Shown: one piece after another, positions 12,585-27,622 of the stretch
Layout of the letters: each line of letters begins with the position of its first letter
How positions within the stretch are numbered: position 1 is the first letter of the stretch
DNA from: Halarcobacter sp.
Lineage (GTDB): Bacteria; Campylobacterota; Campylobacteria; Campylobacterales; Arcobacteraceae
Length of the DNA: 64,000 nt
NCBI GenBank assembly: GCA_963676565.1
Contig: OY781089.1
Location: 2,112,001-2,176,000, forward strand
Direction: 5' to 3'
Translations under genes and position numbers: made by a program
Notes under the pieces: model-generated
Databases searched by the model: none
The model's input: the letters and a program-made list of their open reading frames with translations, nothing else
Told to the model about the DNA's origin: nothing

Positions 12585-14162
12585 CTATTTTAAAGAGTCT
12601 AATAATTCTGCTTTTAATTCCTCTTTATTGATTTTATTCTTATCACTTGGAATTAAAGGAAGTGATTTTTTATAAATTATTCTATTAGGAATCATATAAG
12701 AAGCTAGATGATTTTTAAGTTCAAAAGTTATCTCTTTTGGAGGGATTTCACTTCTAGAACTATAAACCATAACTATCTCTTCTTCAATTTCATCATTTGG
12801 AATTGAGAATATTGCACATTGCTCAATTTGTGGAAAATTCTTTTCAACAACTGATTCAACCTCAAAAGGACTTACTCTAAATCCTCTAGTTTTAATCATG
12901 TCATCTCTTCTACTTACAAAATAGAAATATCCCTCTTCATCTTTATAAACATAATCTCCTGTTGCAACAACAATTTCATCTCTTAATTGTCCATCTAAAT
13001 TGATTACATTTTTTAAAATTTGAATCGATTTAAATCTTTGAGCCGTTTCAATTGGAGCATTCCAAAAACCTTTGTAGATATATCCACCTCTGTGGATTAA
13101 TTCACCCACTTCTCTTGGTTTACACTCATATCCCTCTTCATTTATAACATATAATTCTACGTCTGGAATAGCTTTTCCAATCGATTCAGGTCTAATATTT
13201 ATTTGTGATGGTTCTAAATATGTAGATCTAAATGCCTCTGTTAAACCATGCATTGAATAAAAGTTAACTTGAGGAAAATATCTTTGGATATTTTTTACCA
13301 TTTTAGGTGTTACATTTCCACCTGAAGAGGTAATAGTTTTTACATTAGCTAATAATTCAGGACTTGGTATTCTATGTTCATCTTCATCAAACATTGCATT
13401 TATAGTCACAGGCATCATAGCTACAACTGTTACATTATCATTTATTAAATGGTTGAAAAAATCTCCTGGTAAAATAAATCTATGTAATGCTAATGTTGCT
13501 CTTTTGTAAAGTGAACAAAAAATTTGATTTAAACCATAATCTAGATTAAAAATTAAAATTCCAGAAAGGACATCATCCTCTTGTAAATCTAAATATGAAG
13601 AAACAACCCTTGCACTATCAATTAAGTTTCTATGAGATATTACAATACCTTTAGGTGTTCCTGTTAATCCAAAAGAATAAGTTATTACAGCATTATCATG
13701 ACCATTTACTGTAGTTTCATATGGTTTTTTATAGTATTTAAAAATCTCTTCAAAAGAAGGGATATCTTTATGGGCAGTTTCGTATGAGATAATATGTCCA
13801 TCAAAATTAATTGATTCAATAGATTCAAGTTTTAATTTATCAGTAATAATACATCTAATATCACAATCATTGATTATGTATTCCACCTGTTCACTTTTAA
13901 GTAACTTTGTAAGTGGTACAAGCACATAATTGGTAGATAATATAGCTAGTATTGCTATAACTTGGTCCATACCTTTATTTGAGTAGATACCAATTCTACT
14001 CCCTGCTGGTAAATCTAACTCTTTTAAATAAAAAGCAATTTGATTAACTTTTTTTAATAACTCTTCATAAGTAATAGATTTCTCATTGTGTTTTATTGCT
14101 ATTTTATCACTATGTGTTAACGCAGCACTTTCAATTAATGATCTTATACAATTTATTGACAT
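12585..14162 (-). CDS. ANL-superfamily AMP-forming ligase / adenylation enzyme
   Basis: YSFGLTGTPKG (divergent A3), HGLTEAFRSTYL (A5), TGD (A7), RRDDMIKTRGFRVSPFEVE (A8). Confidence 0.88.
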   Translation of the reverse strand: MSINCIRSLIESAALTHSDKIAIKHNEKSITYEELLKKVNQIAFYLKELDLPAGSRIGIYSNKGMDQVIAILAILSTNYVLVPLTKLLKSEQVEYIINDCDIRCIITDKLKLESIESINFDGHIISYETAHKDIPSFEEIFKYYKKPYETTVNGHDNAVITYSFGLTGTPKGIVISHRNLIDSARVVSSYLDLQEDDVLSGILIFNLDYGLNQIFCSLYKRATLALHRFILPGDFFNHLINDNVTVVAMMPVTINAMFDEDEHRIPSPELLANVKTITSSGGNVTPKMVKNIQRYFPQVNFYSMHGLTEAFRSTYLEPSQINIRPESIGKAIPDVELYVINEEGYECKPREVGELIHRGGYIYKGFWNAPIETAQRFKSIQILKNVINLDGQLRDEIVVATGDYVYKDEEGYFYFVSRRDDMIKTRGFRVSPFEVESVVEKNFPQIEQCAIFSIPNDEIEEEIVMVYSSRSEIPPKEITFELKNHLASYMIPNRIIYKKSLPLIPSDKNKINKEELKAELLDSLK

Positions 14163-14174
14163 CTTATTGCTCCT

Positions 14175-15362
14175 TTATTTATTCATACCCAAAGTCCAAA
14201 TATCATAATTGTTATCCATTACAATAGTTGGGTTGTGGTTAGAGTTTAGAATCTTCTTATAGAAAAATGATACTATATCTTCTATTTCCTCTTGCTTGAG
14301 AACTTTTGTAATTCCACCTGTTAGTACAATAGAATTAAGTACATTTAGTTTTAAATTAACATAGGCTTTTCTAAAAGTTGAAACTTTACATAAAACTAAG
14401 AATATTGCTAATTGCATCAGAATTCTAGTGCTTTTTTCACTTTTCTCATCAAAAATATTTTCAGTAACTTTTAAATGTGCTAGTAATTCATAAACAAACT
14501 CATTGTTTTTTGCTGCAAAGATTAATGATTCCCTTGATTTATATACACCAAGTTTTTTAAATACTAATCTATCATATTCATTTTGAGTTACCATATTTTC
14601 ATCAACTAAGTCTTTTGAATAGTGGATATCAGTAGTTGCTCCACCAATATCTATCAAGATATAAGGATTAGCAACTTTAAATTTACCATCTATCATTGGT
14701 AAAGTTTTATTAACAATATATGGTGTTGAGTAGATTTGATTTGATGTAATATCATATAGACTTTTAATATCTTCTTTTCCCATAATATCAGCTTGATAAA
14801 GGTTTGTTAAATACTCTTTTAAATGTTCCTCTTCAACATGAAGTCTATTTGTAATAATATTTGGAAGAACAACAAGGTTTTTTATTTTTTCTTTTAAAGA
14901 AGGAGCTTCTTTTGAGCTTCCAACATATACAATATTTGAATATTTTATTTTCTCAAGGTATTCAAATAGTTTTTCATCAAAAATATTAGAAACAGAGTCG
15001 ATCCCCCCAACAATAATTACTACATCGATTAAATCACTTGGAATTGAAGTTTTTTCAATATCTTTATATAAAACAGTATCAATAATATTAATACCTGAAT
15101 TAAAGGCGATATTAGTAGCATATTTTAAAGAAAAAGAGTTTGTAACACCGATGATTAATGTACTTAAACCACCATTTGCCGATGAACAAATATATACATC
15201 ATCTTTTTTATAATTATGGATTGTATCACCACATTTATATGTTAAATCATCATAAATATCTTTATTAAAGTCTCTAAAATGTTGCTCAACTCCATGTACT
15301 GTACATACTTTAAAATATGTACTTCCCACATCAATTAATAATTTATCATTTATTTCACTCAT
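14175..15362 (-). CDS. glmL: glutamate mutase reactivating factor GlmL (ASKHA ATPase fold)
   Basis: LIDVGSTYFK, CSSANGGL, IDIGGATTDIH; follows glmE. Start moved to the ATG preceded by AAGGA (ORF track start 15377). Confidence 0.85.
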   Translation of the reverse strand: MSEINDKLLIDVGSTYFKVCTVHGVEQHFRDFNKDIYDDLTYKCGDTIHNYKKDDVYICSSANGGLSTLIIGVTNSFSLKYATNIAFNSGINIIDTVLYKDIEKTSIPSDLIDVVIIVGGIDSVSNIFDEKLFEYLEKIKYSNIVYVGSSKEAPSLKEKIKNLVVLPNIITNRLHVEEEHLKEYLTNLYQADIMGKEDIKSLYDITSNQIYSTPYIVNKTLPMIDGKFKVANPYILIDIGGATTDIHYSKDLVDENMVTQNEYDRLVFKKLGVYKSRESLIFAAKNNEFVYELLAHLKVTENIFDEKSEKSTRILMQLAIFLVLCKVSTFRKAYVNLKLNVLNSIVLTGGITKVLKQEEIEDIVSFFYKKILNSNHNPTIVMDNNYDIWTLGMNK

Positions 15363-15370
15363 ATTCATCC

Positions 15371-16738
15371 TTACCACTGCATAATACCGATATCATGGAT
15401 AATATCGTTTACAATTGATGTAGTATCTTTTTTCAAATCACATTGAGATTTTTCATATTCAAAACATCTGTCTGGAATTGGAACTTTACCTCTATCTATT
15501 ATTCTAATGTTTTTATTTTTATCTCTAATTGTAATCATGTTATTGTGATTAATAATATGTGGAGAGAATGGTACATCAATTGTTCCATTTTTGATTGAAT
15601 TAAATACTTTTCTCCATAAAGTGTCTGCAGGATCATTAAATACTGCTTCCATAATGGCCATAACTTCTGCTGTTAGGTTTTCCTCTTCCTCTTGGTCTAC
15701 AATATTTGGTAAACCATTTAAGATTCTAAGTAAGTATTGAGTATTTGCAACAGTTTCTGCATTTGCTTCTTTTGTTGGGATTCCTGAAGCTTCTTGTTTT
15801 GTTTTTGTAATAATTTTATCAGCTCCAACCATTGAAGCAATAACCGTACTCATAGAGATTAGTTGAGTTGCATAGTTTTGATCTTCCGGAAATGCACCCA
15901 TCCATTGGTGATAAACAAGGTGAATATCCGCATCTTCACACCCAATCTCATTAGCATAATATTTTGCCATTTTCTTTAAAACTGCAGCTGTTACAATATC
16001 TTGATTCATTGAACCTTGTTGTGAAAAAGAAACAGAAAATGATTTAACTCCCTCTTCAAGAGAAAGTAACATCTCTAAAAGTTGTATAACAATAGTAATA
16101 CAAGGTGGGACTAAAGTAGCAGTTAGTGGTCCAAATGATTCTCTATTTATTGGTTCATTTAGTTTTGAATATTGTGCACATACTCTTTCTACATATTTCC
16201 AGTATAAAAATGCTTTGTCTAATGGGAAATTTTTAGAGTAGGGTAAAAGGTAAGTTATTGGACCACCTTCAATCTCAAAAATACCAGAAGCTATTGCCGT
16301 TTCAATTAAAAGTCTTGCATCCGGAGTACCATGTCTTAATGAAATAGGCTTATTAAAGTGAGTCATCATTTTTCTAGTAGTTCTATATCCATGGTTAATT
16401 AAAGGATAACCATTTAACATATCAACTTCACTCTCTTCACTAAGTCTAAGCATCTTTTTAGAGGTTGCATAATCATTTAATCTTGTATTAGAATCGATTG
16501 TACAAGGAAGAACATCAACATCAGCATCATTAAAAAACTCATATAAAGCAAACATTTTATTGTATGTAGGAAAACCACCTCTTGGTTGTACTAACATTTT
16601 ATTTTTTGTTTTGAAATTATAAGAGATAAACAAATCTTTTGAAGCATTTTTAACAAAGTCTTCAACTTCTGCAAAATCAAAATTATCTACATATTCATTG
16701 TTTAAAATAATATTTCTTTCTTCTTGAAGTAAACTCAT
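15371..16738 (-). CDS. glmE: methylaspartate (glutamate) mutase large subunit E
   Basis: VQPRGG, TIDSNTR, LNGYPLINHG, RHGTPD, EGGPITY, NRESFGPL, HQWMGAFP. Confidence 0.92.
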   Translation of the reverse strand: MSLLQEERNIILNNEYVDNFDFAEVEDFVKNASKDLFISYNFKTKNKMLVQPRGGFPTYNKMFALYEFFNDADVDVLPCTIDSNTRLNDYATSKKMLRLSEESEVDMLNGYPLINHGYRTTRKMMTHFNKPISLRHGTPDARLLIETAIASGIFEIEGGPITYLLPYSKNFPLDKAFLYWKYVERVCAQYSKLNEPINRESFGPLTATLVPPCITIVIQLLEMLLSLEEGVKSFSVSFSQQGSMNQDIVTAAVLKKMAKYYANEIGCEDADIHLVYHQWMGAFPEDQNYATQLISMSTVIASMVGADKIITKTKQEASGIPTKEANAETVANTQYLLRILNGLPNIVDQEEEENLTAEVMAIMEAVFNDPADTLWRKVFNSIKNGTIDVPFSPHIINHNNMITIRDKNKNIRIIDRGKVPIPDRCFEYEKSQCDLKKDTTSIVNDIIHDIGIMQW

Positions 16739-17148
16739 TATTTTCTTCCTTCCATGAATTTTTCAAGTTCATCTAAACCAGTATTTAAATCTACTTGGTG
16801 AAATACTAAATCAAAACCATAATTTTTAAATTTTGGAACAATATCATCAGCATACCCTGTACCAACTACTAAGTTACCACCAATCATGAATACAACATTA
16901 TCCAATAAGTTACCATATTGAGCTTTTAAGATTCTAAGCTCTCTTGCCCAACCCTCTGCTTCACCATTAAGTGATGAAATTAATAAAATATCAGCATTTG
17001 TTTCAATCACTGCATCAATAAACTCTTCTAAGTAAGTATTTACACCTAAGTTGAATACTTCGAATCCTCTTGCTTGCAGTGAAAGTTCTATAAGTCTATT
17101 TGCTACTACGTGGATATCATTTCCCACTACGCCAGTTACTACTTTCAT
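16738..17148 (-). CDS. glmS: methylaspartate (glutamate) mutase cobalamin-binding subunit S (not glucosamine-6-phosphate synthase)
   Basis: GVVGNDIHVVA (DxH B12 ligand), SSLNG, IGGNL; stop overlaps glmE start. Confidence 0.92.
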   Translation of the reverse strand: MKVVTGVVGNDIHVVANRLIELSLQARGFEVFNLGVNTYLEEFIDAVIETNADILLISSLNGEAEGWARELRILKAQYGNLLDNVVFMIGGNLVVGTGYADDIVPKFKNYGFDLVFHQVDLNTGLDELEKFMEGRK

Positions 17149-21324: not shown

Positions 21325-21396
21325 CTATTCCCCTTATATTTAAAGGAAATATTATATCTTGGAGAGTTTAAAAATGCAAGAAGCAAAATAGTTTAA

Positions 21397-23985
21397 CTAT
21401 TTTGCCTCATATTTAATAATTACTGGTTCTGAGTAGTTTGGAACTTCATCATATGTAAAGATTGCATAATACTTATCAATATCTTTAGCCCCAAAATCAT
21501 CATATGTATAGTTATCAGTCCCTGCATAAAGTTTTTGTCCATCATGGGTAGAATAGGGTTCCCTAAATGCATTTTTAATAACTTTAGTCCCTTTAAATCC
21601 TACATCTTTAGGGTTTTCCCAGCTGATTTTGATTTTACCATTTTCCAAAGATAGTGAGGTATTAGTAACTTTTGGAAGAGGGTATCTTCTTTTTGGAATA
21701 TGTTCAATAATTAATTTTGGAGAAAGTGCTTGGTTTTTAATCTCCCACGTAACACTTTTATTCTTTATACTCTTTTTAGAAGAGGTTGGTTTTAAAACAA
21801 AAGCAACATCAGATTTATTTTTTAGTTTCTCATTTAAAATAATCTCTGCAAAACTATCAAATAAGAAATATTGAGTTTGATTATTCTTTAATTCATTTGC
21901 ACTTACATCATAACCAATATTTTGAATAATTTCTCTATTTGCTATTGAATCATAATCTTGGTCGATATTTTCATCCACAAATTCAAGGTGAAATCGAATA
22001 TCATCTTTTATATAAATATTTGTAGAATTTAGCTCAAAGTAAGCTTTTGTAATCATCGTATCTTCATGAGGAGGCATTGATGATAAATTAAACTCAAAGG
22101 TAGAGTATATTTTCTTACCATTTTCATCGAATCCTGATGAAATACCATCTTGAGTAATACAATCTTTACAAACTGTAAACACTTTTTTTGGATATAGTTC
22201 TGTAATTGTTGGTTTTATTGTATATGTTAATTCTAATCTTGGTCTATATGTTAAACCATAACCAAATTTTCCATACCCAATATCCCATTGCATCATTTGT
22301 CTAGTACGACCAATTATCAACTCTTTTGGACCTTCAACTCTGAATACAACTTTTCCATATTTTTGACCCATTTCTTGAAGAGTTTTACACTCCATTCTTG
22401 AAAAACTCCATGTTCTCCATATACCTTGAGTTAATTGGTGAGATTCTGTAGGTCTTCCAACATATTGAAGAATTTGCATATTATCAACATCTTCATATTT
22501 GGTAATATCACCCATAGTTTCTTGATCTACAATACCAACATTCCATTCACCGTATTTTTCAATAGTTGTTGAAACTCTATTAATTGGGTAAAGGTTTATT
22601 GAGGCATCTTTTATGATTGCATTTTCTGGAACAGAATTTAAACCAACAGTAACAATAGCATAAGAGATACCCTTATTTTCATCAATTCCTACAAATAAAG
22701 AGTTTACACCAAAATGTGAAGCATTGTTGTTTAGGTTTTCAGCAACATAACCTGTTTCTTTTGCTGTTGCATAATAGGTTCTACTAAACTCATCATAATC
22801 ACAATCTGTTCTAAGTCTTATTTGAGGGTAAAATGGTGATTTTTCACCTGTTAATTTATTTACAACCCTAATATTGTAGAAATAATCTTTATTTGAAGTT
22901 AAATTAATATCACTAAATTCTAAAGTTTGTGTTCTTGCAATTAAGTTTGAACTATTACAAAAGTGTTTATCTTTTTGGGCTCTATAAATCTCAAAGAATA
23001 TATTTTCATTTGTTTCATATTCCCATTTTAAATTTACATGATGTGATCCTATTTCTGTAATCTCAAAGCTATTAACCCTTTTTACTGAATTATTTTTTGA
23101 ATAGTTTGGAACTTCGTTTACCGCAGAAAGTAATGCAGGAATATGTTCCCGCAAATTTTCATTCATATCATCCATATAATCACTTATATTTCTAGTTCCA
23201 ACTTCCACAACAGTTGAGATGATTCCTAAAGAATGATAAAACTCTCTACCACTTCCTGAAATCAATTTAATAGGTGGTTTACCTTGATGGATACCATATT
23301 CTCTACCTGAAATTTTTCTAATCTCTTCAGCCATATTTGCACATAAAGTGTTCATATCAGTTGTATCAATTGTATCTTCATGTCTAAAGTCGTGTGCAGG
23401 GAAAAATACATTTCCTTGTGAGTGGTAGTCTAAAGCAATAGTAATATTCTTATGGGCTTCAACAAAATCTCTTAATGCTCTAGTCTCAGGTTCAGAAAAT
23501 GGTTCTGGACCACCATAAACATTAGATGTTGTTTTGGTTGATTTTACATATCCAATTGGAAAATTTCTGTTTAAATCAACACCATAAGAACCATCTATAT
23601 TTGGTCTTCTATTTTTTCTCCAAAAAGAGAAGTGATTATAAGAATAATCAAAGCCATCTGGATTTGCACAAGGGACCATATAAATAGTAGTTCCTTTTAA
23701 ATATGATTGTATAGTTGTATCTGTATCTAATTTTTCTAATATATATTGTGCAAATTCTACTGCTAATTCATGTCCAATCCATTCTCTAGCATGGATAGTA
23801 CCAGTAAAAAATAGTGCTGGTTGTTCATCTGCTTTTTTAATATCCATAGAGATAGTAATTAGATTAATATCTCTTTTTTCCCAAGTTTGACCTATTGATT
23901 CTAACTTGAAATTATTAGGAAATTTTTTTTCTAAATCTTTAAAAATTTCAGTCGATTCATTATATGATCGATAAAGTTGTTTCAA
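21397..23985 (-). CDS. M14 zinc carboxypeptidase with C-terminal FN3-like/beta-sandwich domains, no signal peptide
   Basis: GTIHAREW (HxxE), WRKNR, GVDLNRNF, FSEPET, LDYHSQG, VVEVG; FN3-like LKWEY...YFYNIRVVN. Confidence 0.88.
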   Translation of the reverse strand: MKQLYRSYNESTEIFKDLEKKFPNNFKLESIGQTWEKRDINLITISMDIKKADEQPALFFTGTIHAREWIGHELAVEFAQYILEKLDTDTTIQSYLKGTTIYMVPCANPDGFDYSYNHFSFWRKNRRPNIDGSYGVDLNRNFPIGYVKSTKTTSNVYGGPEPFSEPETRALRDFVEAHKNITIALDYHSQGNVFFPAHDFRHEDTIDTTDMNTLCANMAEEIRKISGREYGIHQGKPPIKLISGSGREFYHSLGIISTVVEVGTRNISDYMDDMNENLREHIPALLSAVNEVPNYSKNNSVKRVNSFEITEIGSHHVNLKWEYETNENIFFEIYRAQKDKHFCNSSNLIARTQTLEFSDINLTSNKDYFYNIRVVNKLTGEKSPFYPQIRLRTDCDYDEFSRTYYATAKETGYVAENLNNNASHFGVNSLFVGIDENKGISYAIVTVGLNSVPENAIIKDASINLYPINRVSTTIEKYGEWNVGIVDQETMGDITKYEDVDNMQILQYVGRPTESHQLTQGIWRTWSFSRMECKTLQEMGQKYGKVVFRVEGPKELIIGRTRQMMQWDIGYGKFGYGLTYRPRLELTYTIKPTITELYPKKVFTVCKDCITQDGISSGFDENGKKIYSTFEFNLSSMPPHEDTMITKAYFELNSTNIYIKDDIRFHLEFVDENIDQDYDSIANREIIQNIGYDVSANELKNNQTQYFLFDSFAEIILNEKLKNKSDVAFVLKPTSSKKSIKNKSVTWEIKNQALSPKLIIEHIPKRRYPLPKVTNTSLSLENGKIKISWENPKDVGFKGTKVIKNAFREPYSTHDGQKLYAGTDNYTYDDFGAKDIDKYYAIFTYDEVPNYSEPVIIKYEAK

Positions 23986-23988
23986 AAA

Positions 23989-25491
23989 TTACTCTCCTAT
24001 TTTAAGTCTAGATTTTAATTGAGCTAATTTATTTTTCCCAATACCTTCAAGCTCTTTTAATTGATCTAAATCTTTTAAACCTTCATTTTTATTTCTGAAT
24101 TCAAAAATATTTTTTGCAAGTTTAGCACCAATACCTTTTATTTTCTTTAATATTGATTCGTCAGCTGTATTTATGTCAACTCTCATATCATCTAAATTCT
24201 CATCCCAAGTTTTTAGAACTTGTTCATCTATAGATTCTAACTCTAATAAATCACTTGAATCAGTAATAACATTGTTTTTTGCATATTCACTAATCTCTAA
24301 AGCTAAATCCTCTTCCATTCCATGTAAAGTCATTAAATCAGTTAATGATGCACAATTTAAATTTAATTTATTAATCTCTAAATTATCCCTAACTGCATTT
24401 TTTGATAACTCTTTTGCAATAGGTAATTTTTCAAAAGCAATTGAAGCTGGCACATCACTTGGTAAACTAGGTTCAGCCATTTCCATTTTAAATTTATCTT
24501 TTGGCTCATTAATAAAATATGTTCCATCACAAGATGGTTTGTATTTACTAAAACCAATATGTCTCATTGTTCTTAATAGTGATGAGTCAATTTTTCCAAG
24601 CTCTTCCCATGAGAATAATGGAACATGAGGCATAGGAAATTTACCATTTGAAAAATCCCACATTAAATATTGACAAATCCAATCTCTAATATAAGGGAAC
24701 GCTGCAAATGCAGTTGCACATTCTAGTATATAGGCTTTATCTGTTTTTGCATCAATTGCAATATCGCAAGCCCAATATTCAGCTTTTGCTGCTTTACTAG
24801 CTTCTACTGCTAATTCTAAAGCATTCATAGGAACATTTTCATATGACATAGAACCACCTTGAGATGTGTTAGTAATCCATTGTCCTTCCCCTGAAAATCT
24901 CCAAAAGGCGCAAACAGGTTTATGTCCAATTAACATAACTCTAATATCTCCAGAAAATTTTAAATCAATAGCATCTTGTGTATAAATGGGGTTATATTTT
25001 TCTTTTTCTAATAAAGCTTTAGCTTCTTTAAAATTATCAACTTTATGAACATAATATCCACCATAATTTGATGGTCCATAACTTCTTTTTATAATTTGTG
25101 GATACTTAGCTTTATTTTTTAGGTATTTAAATCCCTTTTCTTTATTGTAAAAAATCTTTGTATATGGTGCTGATAGATTATACTTTTCACAAAAAAGTGT
25201 AACATTCTCTTTTGATTTATTTGGAAATTGGGTTTCTAAAGATGGAACAAATCTTACATTTGGTAGTTCTTTTGAAATCTCTACAAATGTATCATATGCT
25301 GTTGCAGGGATATTTCCTATAAGTACATCGATTTTTTTTCTTTTAACTTCTTTTATAAATCTATTTTTATCATTTTTCCAATGATATGTAACAGACTCAA
25401 TCTTGTCTGGCCAACCTTTAAAGTTTGATTTGTCAAAGAATCTCAAAACATAATCTAAATACAAAAAACCTAACTTTGGTAATTTTTTCAT
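23989..25491 (-). CDS. divergent RimK-like ATP-grasp protein fused to tandem ComEA-type helix-hairpin-helix domains
   Basis: IIKRSYG, GDIRV, WITNTSQGG, ACDIA, ILECA; C-terminal VDINTAD..L..IKGIG...LEGIG. Start moved to ATG 25491 after AGGA (ORF track TTG 25509). Confidence 0.8.
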   Translation of the reverse strand: MKKLPKLGFLYLDYVLRFFDKSNFKGWPDKIESVTYHWKNDKNRFIKEVKRKKIDVLIGNIPATAYDTFVEISKELPNVRFVPSLETQFPNKSKENVTLFCEKYNLSAPYTKIFYNKEKGFKYLKNKAKYPQIIKRSYGPSNYGGYYVHKVDNFKEAKALLEKEKYNPIYTQDAIDLKFSGDIRVMLIGHKPVCAFWRFSGEGQWITNTSQGGSMSYENVPMNALELAVEASKAAKAEYWACDIAIDAKTDKAYILECATAFAAFPYIRDWICQYLMWDFSNGKFPMPHVPLFSWEELGKIDSSLLRTMRHIGFSKYKPSCDGTYFINEPKDKFKMEMAEPSLPSDVPASIAFEKLPIAKELSKNAVRDNLEINKLNLNCASLTDLMTLHGMEEDLALEISEYAKNNVITDSSDLLELESIDEQVLKTWDENLDDMRVDINTADESILKKIKGIGAKLAKNIFEFRNKNEGLKDLDQLKELEGIGKNKLAQLKSRLKIGE

Positions 25492-25517
25492 TCCTAACTT
25501 CCTTCTCAATTTATTAA

Positions 25518-26432
25518 TTATTTTTTAGTTTTTCTATCAATTAAATCAACAATTAAGTCAATTTTTTTATCATTATAATCTATACCAATTTTTTCTTGCT
25601 CTGGAGTTAAAAATGCAGGTATCCCATTAACCTCTAAAACAATATACTCTTCTTTTTTTCTATCATAGATAATATCAACTCCAGCGATATCTAGTCCCGT
25701 AACTTTAGCGGCATTTAGTGCCAATTCGATTACACTTTCTGGAATCTCTCTTTTAAAAACACTTCCCCCACTAGTAACATTTGTTCTCCAATCTGTTCCA
25801 CTAGCACGTCTACCATATCCACCAACATAAACACCATCTACAATATCTATTCTAAAGTCACTATTGTCATAATCAATAAATTTCTCTACGTAAAAAAATC
25901 TTAAATCCATTTGATTTAAAAATGGCAATAACATATCAAGGGTTTCTTCATTTTCAATTTTAGTTAATCCAACTCCACCCCAACCATCAGTTGGTTTATA
26001 AACCATTTTATCCCATTTTTTAATTATTTTTTTTAGTTGACCAGTATCATCTCGATGACAAAGTTTATAATCTGCAGTTTGTATTTTGTTTCTTCTTAAA
26101 ACAAATGATGTATGAAATTTATCTTCAGTTAATTCAAAAGATTCAAAAGAGTTAATCATAGGAATAACTTTACTTAAGGCCTTATATAGATACATTTGAT
26201 ATTGAGTTTGTTCCCCTGCATTGTATGAAAAGAATAAATCCAATTTATCTAACTTAATATTTTTGCCATCTCTTTCATATAAAATGTGACCATTTTTTGC
26301 TATAGCATCCCTAAGGTTAATATTAGAAATAACCTCAATTCCTTTTTCATTTAATCGTTCAATAATCTTTTCTTGAATTATATCACCACCACCATTTTGG
26401 TATAACCACATACCAATTGTTCTTGCTCCCAT
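25518..26432 (-). CDS. RimK/LysX-family ATP-grasp amino-acid ligase
   Basis: EDKF, KPTDGWGGVG, DFR, WRTNVTSGG, AGVD, LEVNGIP. Confidence 0.9.
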   Translation of the reverse strand: MGARTIGMWLYQNGGGDIIQEKIIERLNEKGIEVISNINLRDAIAKNGHILYERDGKNIKLDKLDLFFSYNAGEQTQYQMYLYKALSKVIPMINSFESFELTEDKFHTSFVLRRNKIQTADYKLCHRDDTGQLKKIIKKWDKMVYKPTDGWGGVGLTKIENEETLDMLLPFLNQMDLRFFYVEKFIDYDNSDFRIDIVDGVYVGGYGRRASGTDWRTNVTSGGSVFKREIPESVIELALNAAKVTGLDIAGVDIIYDRKKEEYIVLEVNGIPAFLTPEQEKIGIDYNDKKIDLIVDLIDRKTKK

Positions 26433-26458
26433 AAGTTCTCCTAATTTATATATTCCTA

Positions 26459-27550
26459 CTATCTTTGTTGATAAAAACTTAAAATTTTTGTCATCATTTC
26501 GATTCGCTGTTCAAATGAACTTTTTAATGCTCTTTCTTTTTTTGTATGGTCACCGTCTCCAAAAGGACCAAAGCCATCAATTGTTGTTACTCCACAACTT
26601 GCAACAATATTGGCATCACTAACACCACCTCTTCTTTCTGTTTGAATTTTTTGATTAGTCAATTCTTCAAAAAATTTAATCAAATCTAACTGACTTTGGT
26701 TTTGCTCCATTACTCCTCTTTGGATTATACCCTCTGCGTGGGAAATGGTTCCTTCAACAAATGATTTATTAGTGATTTCTTCTACACTTTTCATAACTCT
26801 TTCTTGTTCACTAACTTTGTCAAATCGAAATTCCATATGCATCTCACAATGGGGCGATACAGTATTAATTCCAATACCACCTTCCATCTTGCCTACATTT
26901 ACAATAGTTCCTTCATCAAAGTTTATTAATTCATGAAATTTTTGAAGTTTAATAGCTCCTTCAAGATTTGCATTGATACCTTTTTTGTATGAAGTTCCTG
27001 CATGTGCAGCTTTTCCTTCAACTTTTATAATATATCTTCCAACACCTTTTCTTGCTGTAACTACTTCAAGCTCTTTGCCTGCTGCTTCAAATACAAAACA
27101 ATAATCATAATCCTTTGCAATTGATGCTGTAACTTCTTTTGAGTCATCACTTCCTGTCTCTTCGTCTGAAACCAATAAAAAATCAATATTGAAAATTTCT
27201 TTATTTTTCTTAAAAATGTTTCTAAGAGATTGTAAGGCTACAATATTACCACCTTTCATATCACATGCACCAGGACCATATATCCAATCTTCATCTTCAC
27301 TAAAACCTTCAAAATATCCCTTAGGAAAAACAGTATCGTTATGTCCTAATAAAAGTATTTTTTTCCCATCTTTTCTAGCAGATTGATATAGGATATGATC
27401 ACCAATTAATTCTCTTTTGAATATTTTTTTTGAAAAGCCAAGTTCTTCTAGCCATTTACTCATGTAACTACTAACTTCATCGACACCATGTTTGTTATGG
27501 GTGTATGAGTTAATATTAATGATTGTTTTTAAGTCTTTTAAGTAATTCAA
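26459..27550 (-). CDS. M20 metallopeptidase (glutamate carboxypeptidase G2-like)
   Basis: LLGHNDTV, GPGACDMKGG, SDEETGS, AAHAG, GGVSDAN, GDGDH. Confidence 0.88.
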   Translation of the reverse strand: MNYLKDLKTIININSYTHNKHGVDEVSSYMSKWLEELGFSKKIFKRELIGDHILYQSARKDGKKILLLGHNDTVFPKGYFEGFSEDEDWIYGPGACDMKGGNIVALQSLRNIFKKNKEIFNIDFLLVSDEETGSDDSKEVTASIAKDYDYCFVFEAAGKELEVVTARKGVGRYIIKVEGKAAHAGTSYKKGINANLEGAIKLQKFHELINFDEGTIVNVGKMEGGIGINTVSPHCEMHMEFRFDKVSEQERVMKSVEEITNKSFVEGTISHAEGIIQRGVMEQNQSQLDLIKFFEELTNQKIQTERRGGVSDANIVASCGVTTIDGFGPFGDGDHTKKERALKSSFEQRIEMMTKILSFYQQR

Positions 27551-27592: not shown

Positions 27593-27622
27593 AAGCCAAG
27601 TAATTATATAACTACTTGACTT
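27593..27622 (-). terminator. hairpin downstream of argG (terminator-like; also contains a TATAAT)
   Basis: Minus strand aagtcaagtagtt-atat-aattacttggctt followed by T-rich sequence. Confidence 0.55.

Follow-up and report, generated by a model that had tools for sequence, protein, structure and literature searches.

Architecture of the four-gene module

In the genome of Halarcobacter sp. (Arcobacteraceae; assembly GCA_963676565.1), we characterized a four-gene module of two ATP-grasp ligases and two peptidases that lies within a 64,000-nucleotide (nt) stretch of contig OY781089.1 (positions 2,112,001 to 2,176,000; hereafter the window, whose coordinates are used throughout). The host sequence is a complete genome of 3.34 Mb, with an estimated completeness of 99.97%. 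All four open reading frames (ORFs) lie on the minus strand, with the same limits as in the original prediction, which was made without database searches. They encode an M20 family peptidase (26459-27550, 363 amino acids (aa)); a RimK-type ligase, hereafter G1 (25518-26432, 304 aa); a second ligase fused to helix-hairpin-helix (HhH) domains, hereafter G2 (23989-25491, 500 aa); and an M14 family carboxypeptidase (21397-23985, 862 aa). For G2, we used the ATG at which its homologues begin, whereas the ORF finder extended the gene to a TTG at 25509. The intergenic gaps are only 26, 26 and 3 nt, bearing out the description of four tightly spaced, co-oriented genes. Likewise, the domain assignments were confirmed by Pfam and NCBIfam, with Peptidase_M20 and M20_dimer in the M20 protein, RimK in G1, RimK and two copies of HHH_3 in G2, and Peptidase_M14 in the M14 protein.

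The module is flanked by argG on one side and by a gene for a gamma-carbonic-anhydrase-like hexapeptide protein on the other. Ten terminator-like hairpins were observed, against 2.8 ± 1.5 in shuffled sequences, and one of these lies on each side of the four-gene set, both on the minus strand and each with a 13-pair stem and a T tail: the first follows argG (27593-27622), and the second overlaps the M14 stop codon (21380-21408). A TATAAT at 27608-27603 (minus strand), within the hairpin after argG, may serve the module as its -10 box (promoter match 10/12); promoter-like sites overall occur at the chance level (47 observed versus 50.5 expected).

A Kyte-Doolittle scan, which is not a dedicated signal-peptide predictor, revealed no signal peptide or membrane segment in any of the four proteins, none of which contains a 19-residue hydrophobic window scoring above 1.3, in agreement with the earlier annotation. 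Thus, the four genes are real and intact, and their products are cytoplasmic in character. The GC content at third codon positions (GC3) of the four genes, 0.15-0.18, matches the genome mean of 0.151 ± 0.027, and the genes therefore look long resident; the locus search identified a G2 with 97% identity in a Halarcobacter sp. In three metatranscriptome contig sets, there are pieces 90-99% similar to the module and argG (depth in 27, 13 and 13 of 30 bins), and one raw-read run contributed a single partial read. We did not use any of these data as evidence of expression: contigs cannot show transcription, and the source relatives have a low word share.

The four genes are conserved together

A scan of genome contigs yielded 519 stretches encoding a relative of G2, and a metagenome scan with a divergent G2 as the query yielded 244; the best 80 of each were analyzed. 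The complete four-gene set is present in 69/80 genome loci and 51/80 metagenome loci, that is, 120/160 combined, and most of the misses are contig ends. Among the 116 loci with room for neighbors, 105 carry all four genes, and the 11 exceptions comprise four solo G2 copies, three loci without an adjacent M14, two without an adjacent M20, one locus disrupted by an insertion sequence (IS) and one M20-G1 fusion. In 30 of the 93 complete loci, the M20 gene is inverted but still adjacent. These counts are conditional on G2, by which the loci were chosen, and kin genomes are not independent, so we give no P value for the coupling. A less biased test is provided by the whole genomes of 40 relatives, of which 18 encode G2, 19 a full-length M14, 22 a close M20 and 19 a full-length G1. 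All 18 genomes with G2 also hold the other three genes, including one (G038) where G2 is located far from the rest, yet all four are kept. The grouping of the four genes is far beyond chance, and the co-conservation that served as the main test in the original prediction is thus confirmed.

Several loci depart from the standard arrangement. In two relatives (L174 in G017 and L175 in G002), argG, M20 and the hexapeptide gene are directly joined, G1, G2 and M14 being cleanly lost and M20 intact. M20 and G1 form a single 671-aa reading frame in one assembled genome (L083:5986-8001), which represents either a real fusion or an assembly error. At L076:3210-11922, the module is broken by IS-like ORFs, with M20 and M14 split and G1 missing. 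One contig carries the module twice, with identical G1, G2 and M14 scores (G020:C17:53299-59950 and 405678-412330), indicating a duplication or an assembly artifact, and extra G1 copies occur in L035, L065, G004 and G021. The solo G2 copies of L044, L051 and L080 keep only a basic HhH domain, and one of them, L044, shares its assembly with a complete module, L072. A hydrophobic protein of about 109 aa follows M14 in 12 of the 80 loci (L039, L040, L043, L046, L050, L052-L054, L056, L058, L060 and L071), probably due to lineage synteny.

G2 is present in 13/24 genomes of the same genus and in 28/300 genomes across the phylum, and was not found in the phylum's two largest families (0/90 and 0/124 genomes). 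The named carriers include Arcobacteraceae, Sulfurimonas, Sulfurospirillum, Thiomicrorhabdus, Desulfuromonadales and Photobacterium. No G2 was detected in 399 other genomes from the class of a Thiomicrorhabdus carrier, and no close match in 300 other genomes from the phylum of another carrier, G042; three genomes of the latter phylum encode distant, stand-alone G2-like genes (31-33% identity) without the peptidases. Among 1.84 billion representatives searched, only 19 matched G2 at E <1e-30, about five of them over the full length, and G2 is therefore one tight family. Phage RimK-like clusters top the language-model list. No relative of G2 was found among 110 pattern matches in viral contigs, so that spread of G2 by phages is not supported.

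A tie to arginine synthesis through argG was considered and rejected given that argG is located upstream in only 30 of the 80 loci; in other lineages, the upstream neighbors are rimM-trmD-rplS (20-22/80) or unrelated genes. The adjacency of argG is coincidental lineage synteny, as the original prediction had allowed.

Both peptidases are predicted to act on acidic C-terminal residues

The M20 protein (26459-27550, minus strand) is a metallo-carboxypeptidase with carboxypeptidase G2 (CPG2) as its closest solved structure (1cg2, E 3e-29), although it does not reach the cut-off of the CPG2 family NF004788 (183.6 of 349 bits). H70, D97, E130, E131, E155, R242 and R278 are invariant in 124/124 homologues, and H335 is present in 123, the remaining one having a gap. 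Arg242 aligns with the CPG2 arginine that we take to be residue 288, with the role we ascribe to it. The M20 active site appears to point to acidic C-terminal residues, and the enzyme is predicted to release C-terminal glutamate from acyl-glutamate substrates.

The catalytic domain of the M14 protein occupies aa 1-295 (23101-23985, minus strand) and contains H65, E68, R123, N139-R140, H188 and E261, of which H65, E68, H188 and E261 are present in 120/120 homologues. Arg247, the equivalent of carboxypeptidase A (CPA) position 255, is an arginine in 119 of the 120 homologues and a lysine in one, and the segment with this specificity position aligns to CPA4 without gaps. The equivalent of Tyr248 is not kept (K240, variable). 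A basic residue at position 255 confers acidic specificity, as in carboxypeptidase O (CPO) and the deglutamylating cytosolic carboxypeptidases (CCPs), according to two reports (PMC4230590, PMC9925722). With its zinc ligands, catalytic glutamate and basic residue 255, the protein has the features of acid-specific, CPO- or CCP-like M14 enzymes, and its pocket should select acidic C-terminal residues. The predicted structure (predicted local distance difference test (pLDDT) 88.6) is nearest to CPA, carboxypeptidase B (CPB) and carboxypeptidase T (CPT) (Z 33-34) and not closest to the CCP folds (bacterial CCP 4a37, Z 24.5; CCP5, Z 22.1).

The rest of the M14 protein (21397-23100, minus strand) is an array of four accessory domains: a fibronectin type III (FnIII)-like domain at about 296-396 (fold match Z 12.7), a CBM96/DNRLRE-like domain at 393-589, a second DNRLRE domain at 596-760 (NCBIfam NF033679) and a C-terminal beta domain at 763-862. 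In the predicted model, region 393-589 has the CBM96 fold, matching a chondroitin-sulfate-binding carbohydrate-binding module (CBM; 8wab, Z 18.4, root mean square deviation (rmsd) 3.0 over 170 aligned residues) and the alginate-binding CBM96 7vbo (Z 15.0, rmsd 3.1, 163 aligned). Such domains are reported on polysaccharide lyases and a polyhydroxybutyrate (PHB) hydrolase (PMC9971899, PMC12278694). The CBM96-like domain contains conserved R470, R549 and R581, yet its net charge is -2, and binding of a polyanion by these domains is a tentative lead suggested by the model.

Two divergent ATP-grasp ligases

Judging from the alignment, G1 (25518-26432, minus strand) carries a complete RimK-type active site: K105, K146, E183, D192, R194, R208, N218, D253, E267 and N269 are invariant in 144/144 homologues, and the best match in the Protein Data Bank is E. 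coli RimK. Arg189 and Asn262 of P. aeruginosa RimK, which are reported to contact glutamate (PMC10092738), have equivalents in G1. At LysX positions 192 and 203, G1 carries Tyr and Val/Ile; the substitutions I192Y and T203V are reported to have shifted LysX specificity towards glutamate (PMC12998189).

Neither ligase passes any curated NCBIfam cut-off. The top score of G1 is for MptN (138 of 350 bits), and CofF is not reached either (69 of 300). Scores for G1 and G2 are 53.9 and 19.2 bits for the RimK equivalog NF007764 (cut-off 331), 120.1 and 65.0 for the RimK family of alpha-L-glutamate ligases, TIGR00768 (143.4), and 91.8 and 52.4 for LysX, TIGR02144 (275.6). GshB models are also missed (NF003573, 52.5 of 272 bits; TIGR01380, 48.9 of 299). 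The Pfam hits to RimK and GSH-S_ATP are weak, and Pfam detects no TTL or Mur-ligase domain in G1 or G2. Together with a true RimK encoded elsewhere in the genome, these scores do not bear out the refuting case named in the original prediction, in which the ligases would cluster with true RimK or GshB.

The ATP-grasp domain of G2 (aa 1-320; 24532-25491, minus strand) is strikingly conserved, with 104 of its 320 positions invariant in 159 sequences and a mean identity among homologues of 0.74, compared to 0.62 for G1. It has a LysX-like WI/LTNTSQGG loop, an SYGxSNYGG loop, and E257-C-A259 in place of ExN. K94, K135, D182, R184, R198, N208, D243 and E257 are retained, whereas the Asn of ExN is replaced by Ala in 159/159 sequences. 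The best sequence match is LysX (3vpd), and the best fold match of the model (pLDDT 72.9) is to ArgX/LysX/RimK. G2 represents a closely knit family of ATP-grasp enzymes whose metal site is non-canonical. That G2 is a certain pseudo-enzyme is unproven: the PurK encoded in the window passes its own cut-off despite E-I-A at the same motif, which we take to be equivalent to the ECA of G2.

The C-terminal region of G2 (23989-24375, minus strand) is preceded by an acidic linker modeled with low confidence and comprises an acidic HhH domain (aa 373-434, net charge -12) and a basic, ComEA-like HhH domain (aa 435-500, net charge +4). The tail varies among 152 full-length G2 proteins: 71 have only the GxG-type, 38 both types, 36 only the acidic type and seven neither, so that a GxG-type motif, in ComEA-like and RecD2-like variants, is present in 109/152. 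The C-termini of G2 are not conserved as Glu.

The two ligases are related to each other (profile-profile match probability 96.8), but in a quick tree of 49 rows, with the careful search incomplete and the RimK branch saturated, the only result to emerge is that each of them forms a tight clade of its own. Looking for longer proteins, we identified a natural G1-G2 fusion, P0286 (640 aa; a metagenomic cluster with four members), with 57% and 62% identity to the two ligases, both sites intact and no HhH region. Because such a fusion exists, G1 and G2 probably act as a single synthetase, and the lack of HhH domains in the fusion suggests that DNA binding is not essential.

Known acceptors and related systems

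Another gene, elsewhere in this genome, exceeds the cut-off of the RimK equivalog (NF007764, 365 bits). It is located in a cluster (L183; G000:C1:2719153-2722636) that consists of a rimB-like gene, the true rimK, a DoeB/AstE-like hydrolase gene and a gene for a 347-aa peptidase-like protein, the last assigned by eye and without an NCBIfam match. Glutamylation of ribosomal protein S6 by RimK needs a terminal Glu acceptor, and S6 of this genome ends in EAAKKAN, without a terminal Glu; the L183 cluster is thus a further glutamate ligase system whose textbook substrate is missing from the genome.

Searches of the genome, with positive results in control genomes, did not find LysW, CofD (F420), Mch (methanopterin) or GshA (PF04262). 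CphA and GshAB gave no match above the cut-off, and neither did they in the control genomes. The genome does contain a GCS2-family gene, which overlaps with one of 505 aa that by eye is gamma-glutamyltransferase-like (G000:C1:848033-850626). None of the 285 small ORFs around 93 complete loci is a conserved carrier-like ORF, and none has an acidic C-terminus. The proteome contains acidic C-termini in 34 of 3305 ORFs, from which no specific target emerged, and no target gene recurrently travels with the module in the loci analyzed. Elsewhere in the window (12585-17148, minus strand), glutamate mutase S, E and GlmL-like genes are followed by an AMP-forming ligase instead of methylaspartate ammonia-lyase; at other loci, the module has no such cluster next to it.

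The module resembles several known systems, most directly RimK/RimB (RimABK of Pseudomonas; E. coli RimK), in which a RimK-type ATP-grasp glutamate ligase is co-encoded with an eraser. RimK of these systems is reported to make free poly-alpha-glutamate (PMC11957791, PMC10092738). In contrast to RimK/RimB, the module has two ligases rather than one, both below the RimK cut-off, and in place of a retropepsin eraser it has M14 and M20 exopeptidases; furthermore, the host S6 lacks the terminal Glu, and the host has its own rimB-rimK elsewhere. G2 is most similar to LysX/ArgX in sequence and fold, but differs from these enzymes by the absence of the ExN Asn and the presence of HhH domains. In the LysX/ArgX-LysW-LysK pathway, an M20 enzyme releases the product; for our module, we found no LysW or other carrier, and no kinase, reductase or aminotransferase.

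Eukaryotic TTLL/CCP systems likewise pair ATP-grasp writers with cytosolic M14 erasers bearing Arg255, whereas the M14 fold of the module is nearer to CPA/CPB/CPT than to the CCPs, its ligases have no TTL match in Pfam, and no tubulin-like target is known. Cyanophycin is a cytoplasmic amino-acid polymer made by CphA, a synthetase with two active sites, and recycled by two hydrolases, CphB and dipeptidases. The module would share this logic of a polymer synthetase with two hydrolases, but lacks a Mur-ligase domain and a cyanophycinase, and the residues of both its peptidases suggest a preference for acidic termini. MptN and CofF are, like G1, RimK-family alpha-glutamate ligases, with MptN giving the top NCBIfam score of G1; however, G1 falls far below the cut-off, and the methanopterin and F420 markers were not found in the host genome. 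In its operation the module is comparable to RimK/RimB, and in its logic to TTLL/CCP or cyanophycin, yet it qualifies as a member of none of them. A literature search, outside of which lay most subscription papers and the amidoligase-operon survey of Iyer et al. 2009, returned no paper on the four-gene arrangement.

A candidate system for making and recycling glutamate chains

The explanation that we favor, tentatively and at somewhat less than an even chance, is that the four proteins synthesize and recycle an acidic peptide chain in the cytoplasm, a glutamate-rich oligomer or polymer, without a dedicated carrier protein. Three points favor this reading: the module is not accompanied by any target gene, the M14 protein bears accessory folds of polymer enzymes, and RimK enzymes are reported to make free poly-alpha-glutamate, also in vivo (PMC11957791). 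From the observed gene content, coupling, active-site residues and folds, we infer a chemistry in which G1 and G2 would together constitute one two-module ATP-grasp synthetase. G1 would activate the terminal carboxylate with ATP and add glutamate, and G2 might either form a different type of bond, for example a side-chain or priming linkage, or act as an ATP-binding, chain-holding partner. M14, tethered by its CBM96-like domains, would trim acidic residues from the C-terminus of long chains, and the CPG2-like M20 would cut the last glutamate off short acyl-glutamate products. Such a system would probably serve to store or buffer glutamate, nitrogen or charge in a reversible way. The reversible writer-eraser cycle proposed in the original prediction is thereby partly supported: the active-site residues of the peptidases point to acidic residues and therefore fit a cycle of glutamate addition and removal.

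Several observations weigh against the free-chain interpretation. The LysX signature is not universal, given that E. coli RimK, itself a glutamate ligase, has Ile and Leu at these positions, and Arg255 does not discriminate Glu from Asp. HMMER places Arg278 of M20 two residues before the CPG2 arginine that we take to be Arg324, with its presumed role. The CBM96-like domains are not net basic (-2 and -6), and the DNRLRE domain of the PHB hydrolase is described as having a neutral surface. There is no substrate or transporter gene in the module, and the strong conservation of G2 could reflect docking on a conserved protein. Finally, parts of the module are kept alone: M20 only in G002 and G017, M20 with G1 only in G033 (where both sit on a short contig; a further genome, G025, is 83% complete), and solo G2 copies in L044, L051 and L080.

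The strongest competitor, a serious although on balance unlikely one, is reversible glutamate tailing of a cytoplasmic protein, in which G2 would recognize or prime the target, G1 elongate the tail, M14 shorten it and M20 remove the last residue, as TTLL/CCP enzymes do for tubulin or RimK/RimB for S6; one candidate acceptor is G2 itself, through its acidic linker or HhH domain. Among solved structures, the nearest relatives of the two ligases, RimK and LysX/ArgX, modify proteins, and Arg255 is common to M14 and the deglutamylating CCPs. The unusual conservation of G2 over non-catalytic surface (104/320 invariant) would also fit, as would the correlation between G2 and M14 pairwise identities (Spearman 0.84 in 59 loci, against 0.32-0.54 for other pairs), a value inflated by adjacency and kinship, and a locus (L020:12232-13598) where the module is followed by a second divergent G1 and then by a 145-aa HhH-only gene. 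However, the module is not accompanied by a gene for any candidate target, S6 does not end in Glu, LysW was not found in the genome, the C-termini of G2 are not conserved as Glu, and the G1-G2 fusion lacks the HhH region entirely.

Less probable still is glutamylation of a small molecule, in which the ligases would make folate tails or a di- or tripeptide solute of the N-acyl-glutamate type and the peptidases would release them. CPG2 cleaves Glu from folates, vertebrate RimK-like enzymes make N-acetylaspartylglutamate (NAAG) and beta-citrylglutamate, and MptN, the top NCBIfam score of G1, is a pterin glutamate ligase. Yet the MptN match is unspecific, as the true RimK of this genome scores higher on the same model (161 bits); Mch and CofD were not found in a genome that is 99.97% complete, and the four accessory domains of M14 suit a large substrate better.

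A variant that combines elements of these schemes appears improbable. Here, G2 would make a gamma side-chain branch on a protein target or polymer, G1 would elongate it with alpha-linked glutamates, M14 and M20 would edit the two bond types separately, and the HhH domains would tie the synthetase to DNA or the nucleoid in most lineages, making the system a bacterial counterpart of the eukaryotic initiase/elongase code. We consider it very unlikely that polyglutamylation is DNA-directed, with the HhH domains localizing or activating the synthetase on DNA or the nucleoid in a PARP-like manner: the GxG-type HhH motif in 109/152 full-length G2 proteins would fit, but 36 keep only the acidic, degenerate HhH and seven match neither pattern, the G1-G2 fusion has none, and no DNA-repair gene recurs near the module in the loci analyzed. 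A redundant RimK or glutathione synthetase with unrelated neighboring peptidases, to which the weak Pfam RimK and GSH-S_ATP matches might point, is hardly tenable and largely refuted by the strict four-gene coupling, with bit scores far under the cut-offs for RimK (54 against 331) and GshB (52 against 272), a true RimK encoded elsewhere, and no GshA (PF04262) found, though a GCS2-family gene is present.

The module is real, conserved and uncharacterized, as well as compact, soluble and self-contained. If the glutamate-chain interpretation is correct, Campylobacterota lineages, including Arcobacteraceae, Sulfurimonas and Sulfurospirillum, would possess a glutamate polymer or a modification of proteins that has yet to be described, together with dedicated writers and erasers. 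A synthetase that builds glutamate chains with two modules would, moreover, be useful for the enzymatic synthesis of polyglutamate.

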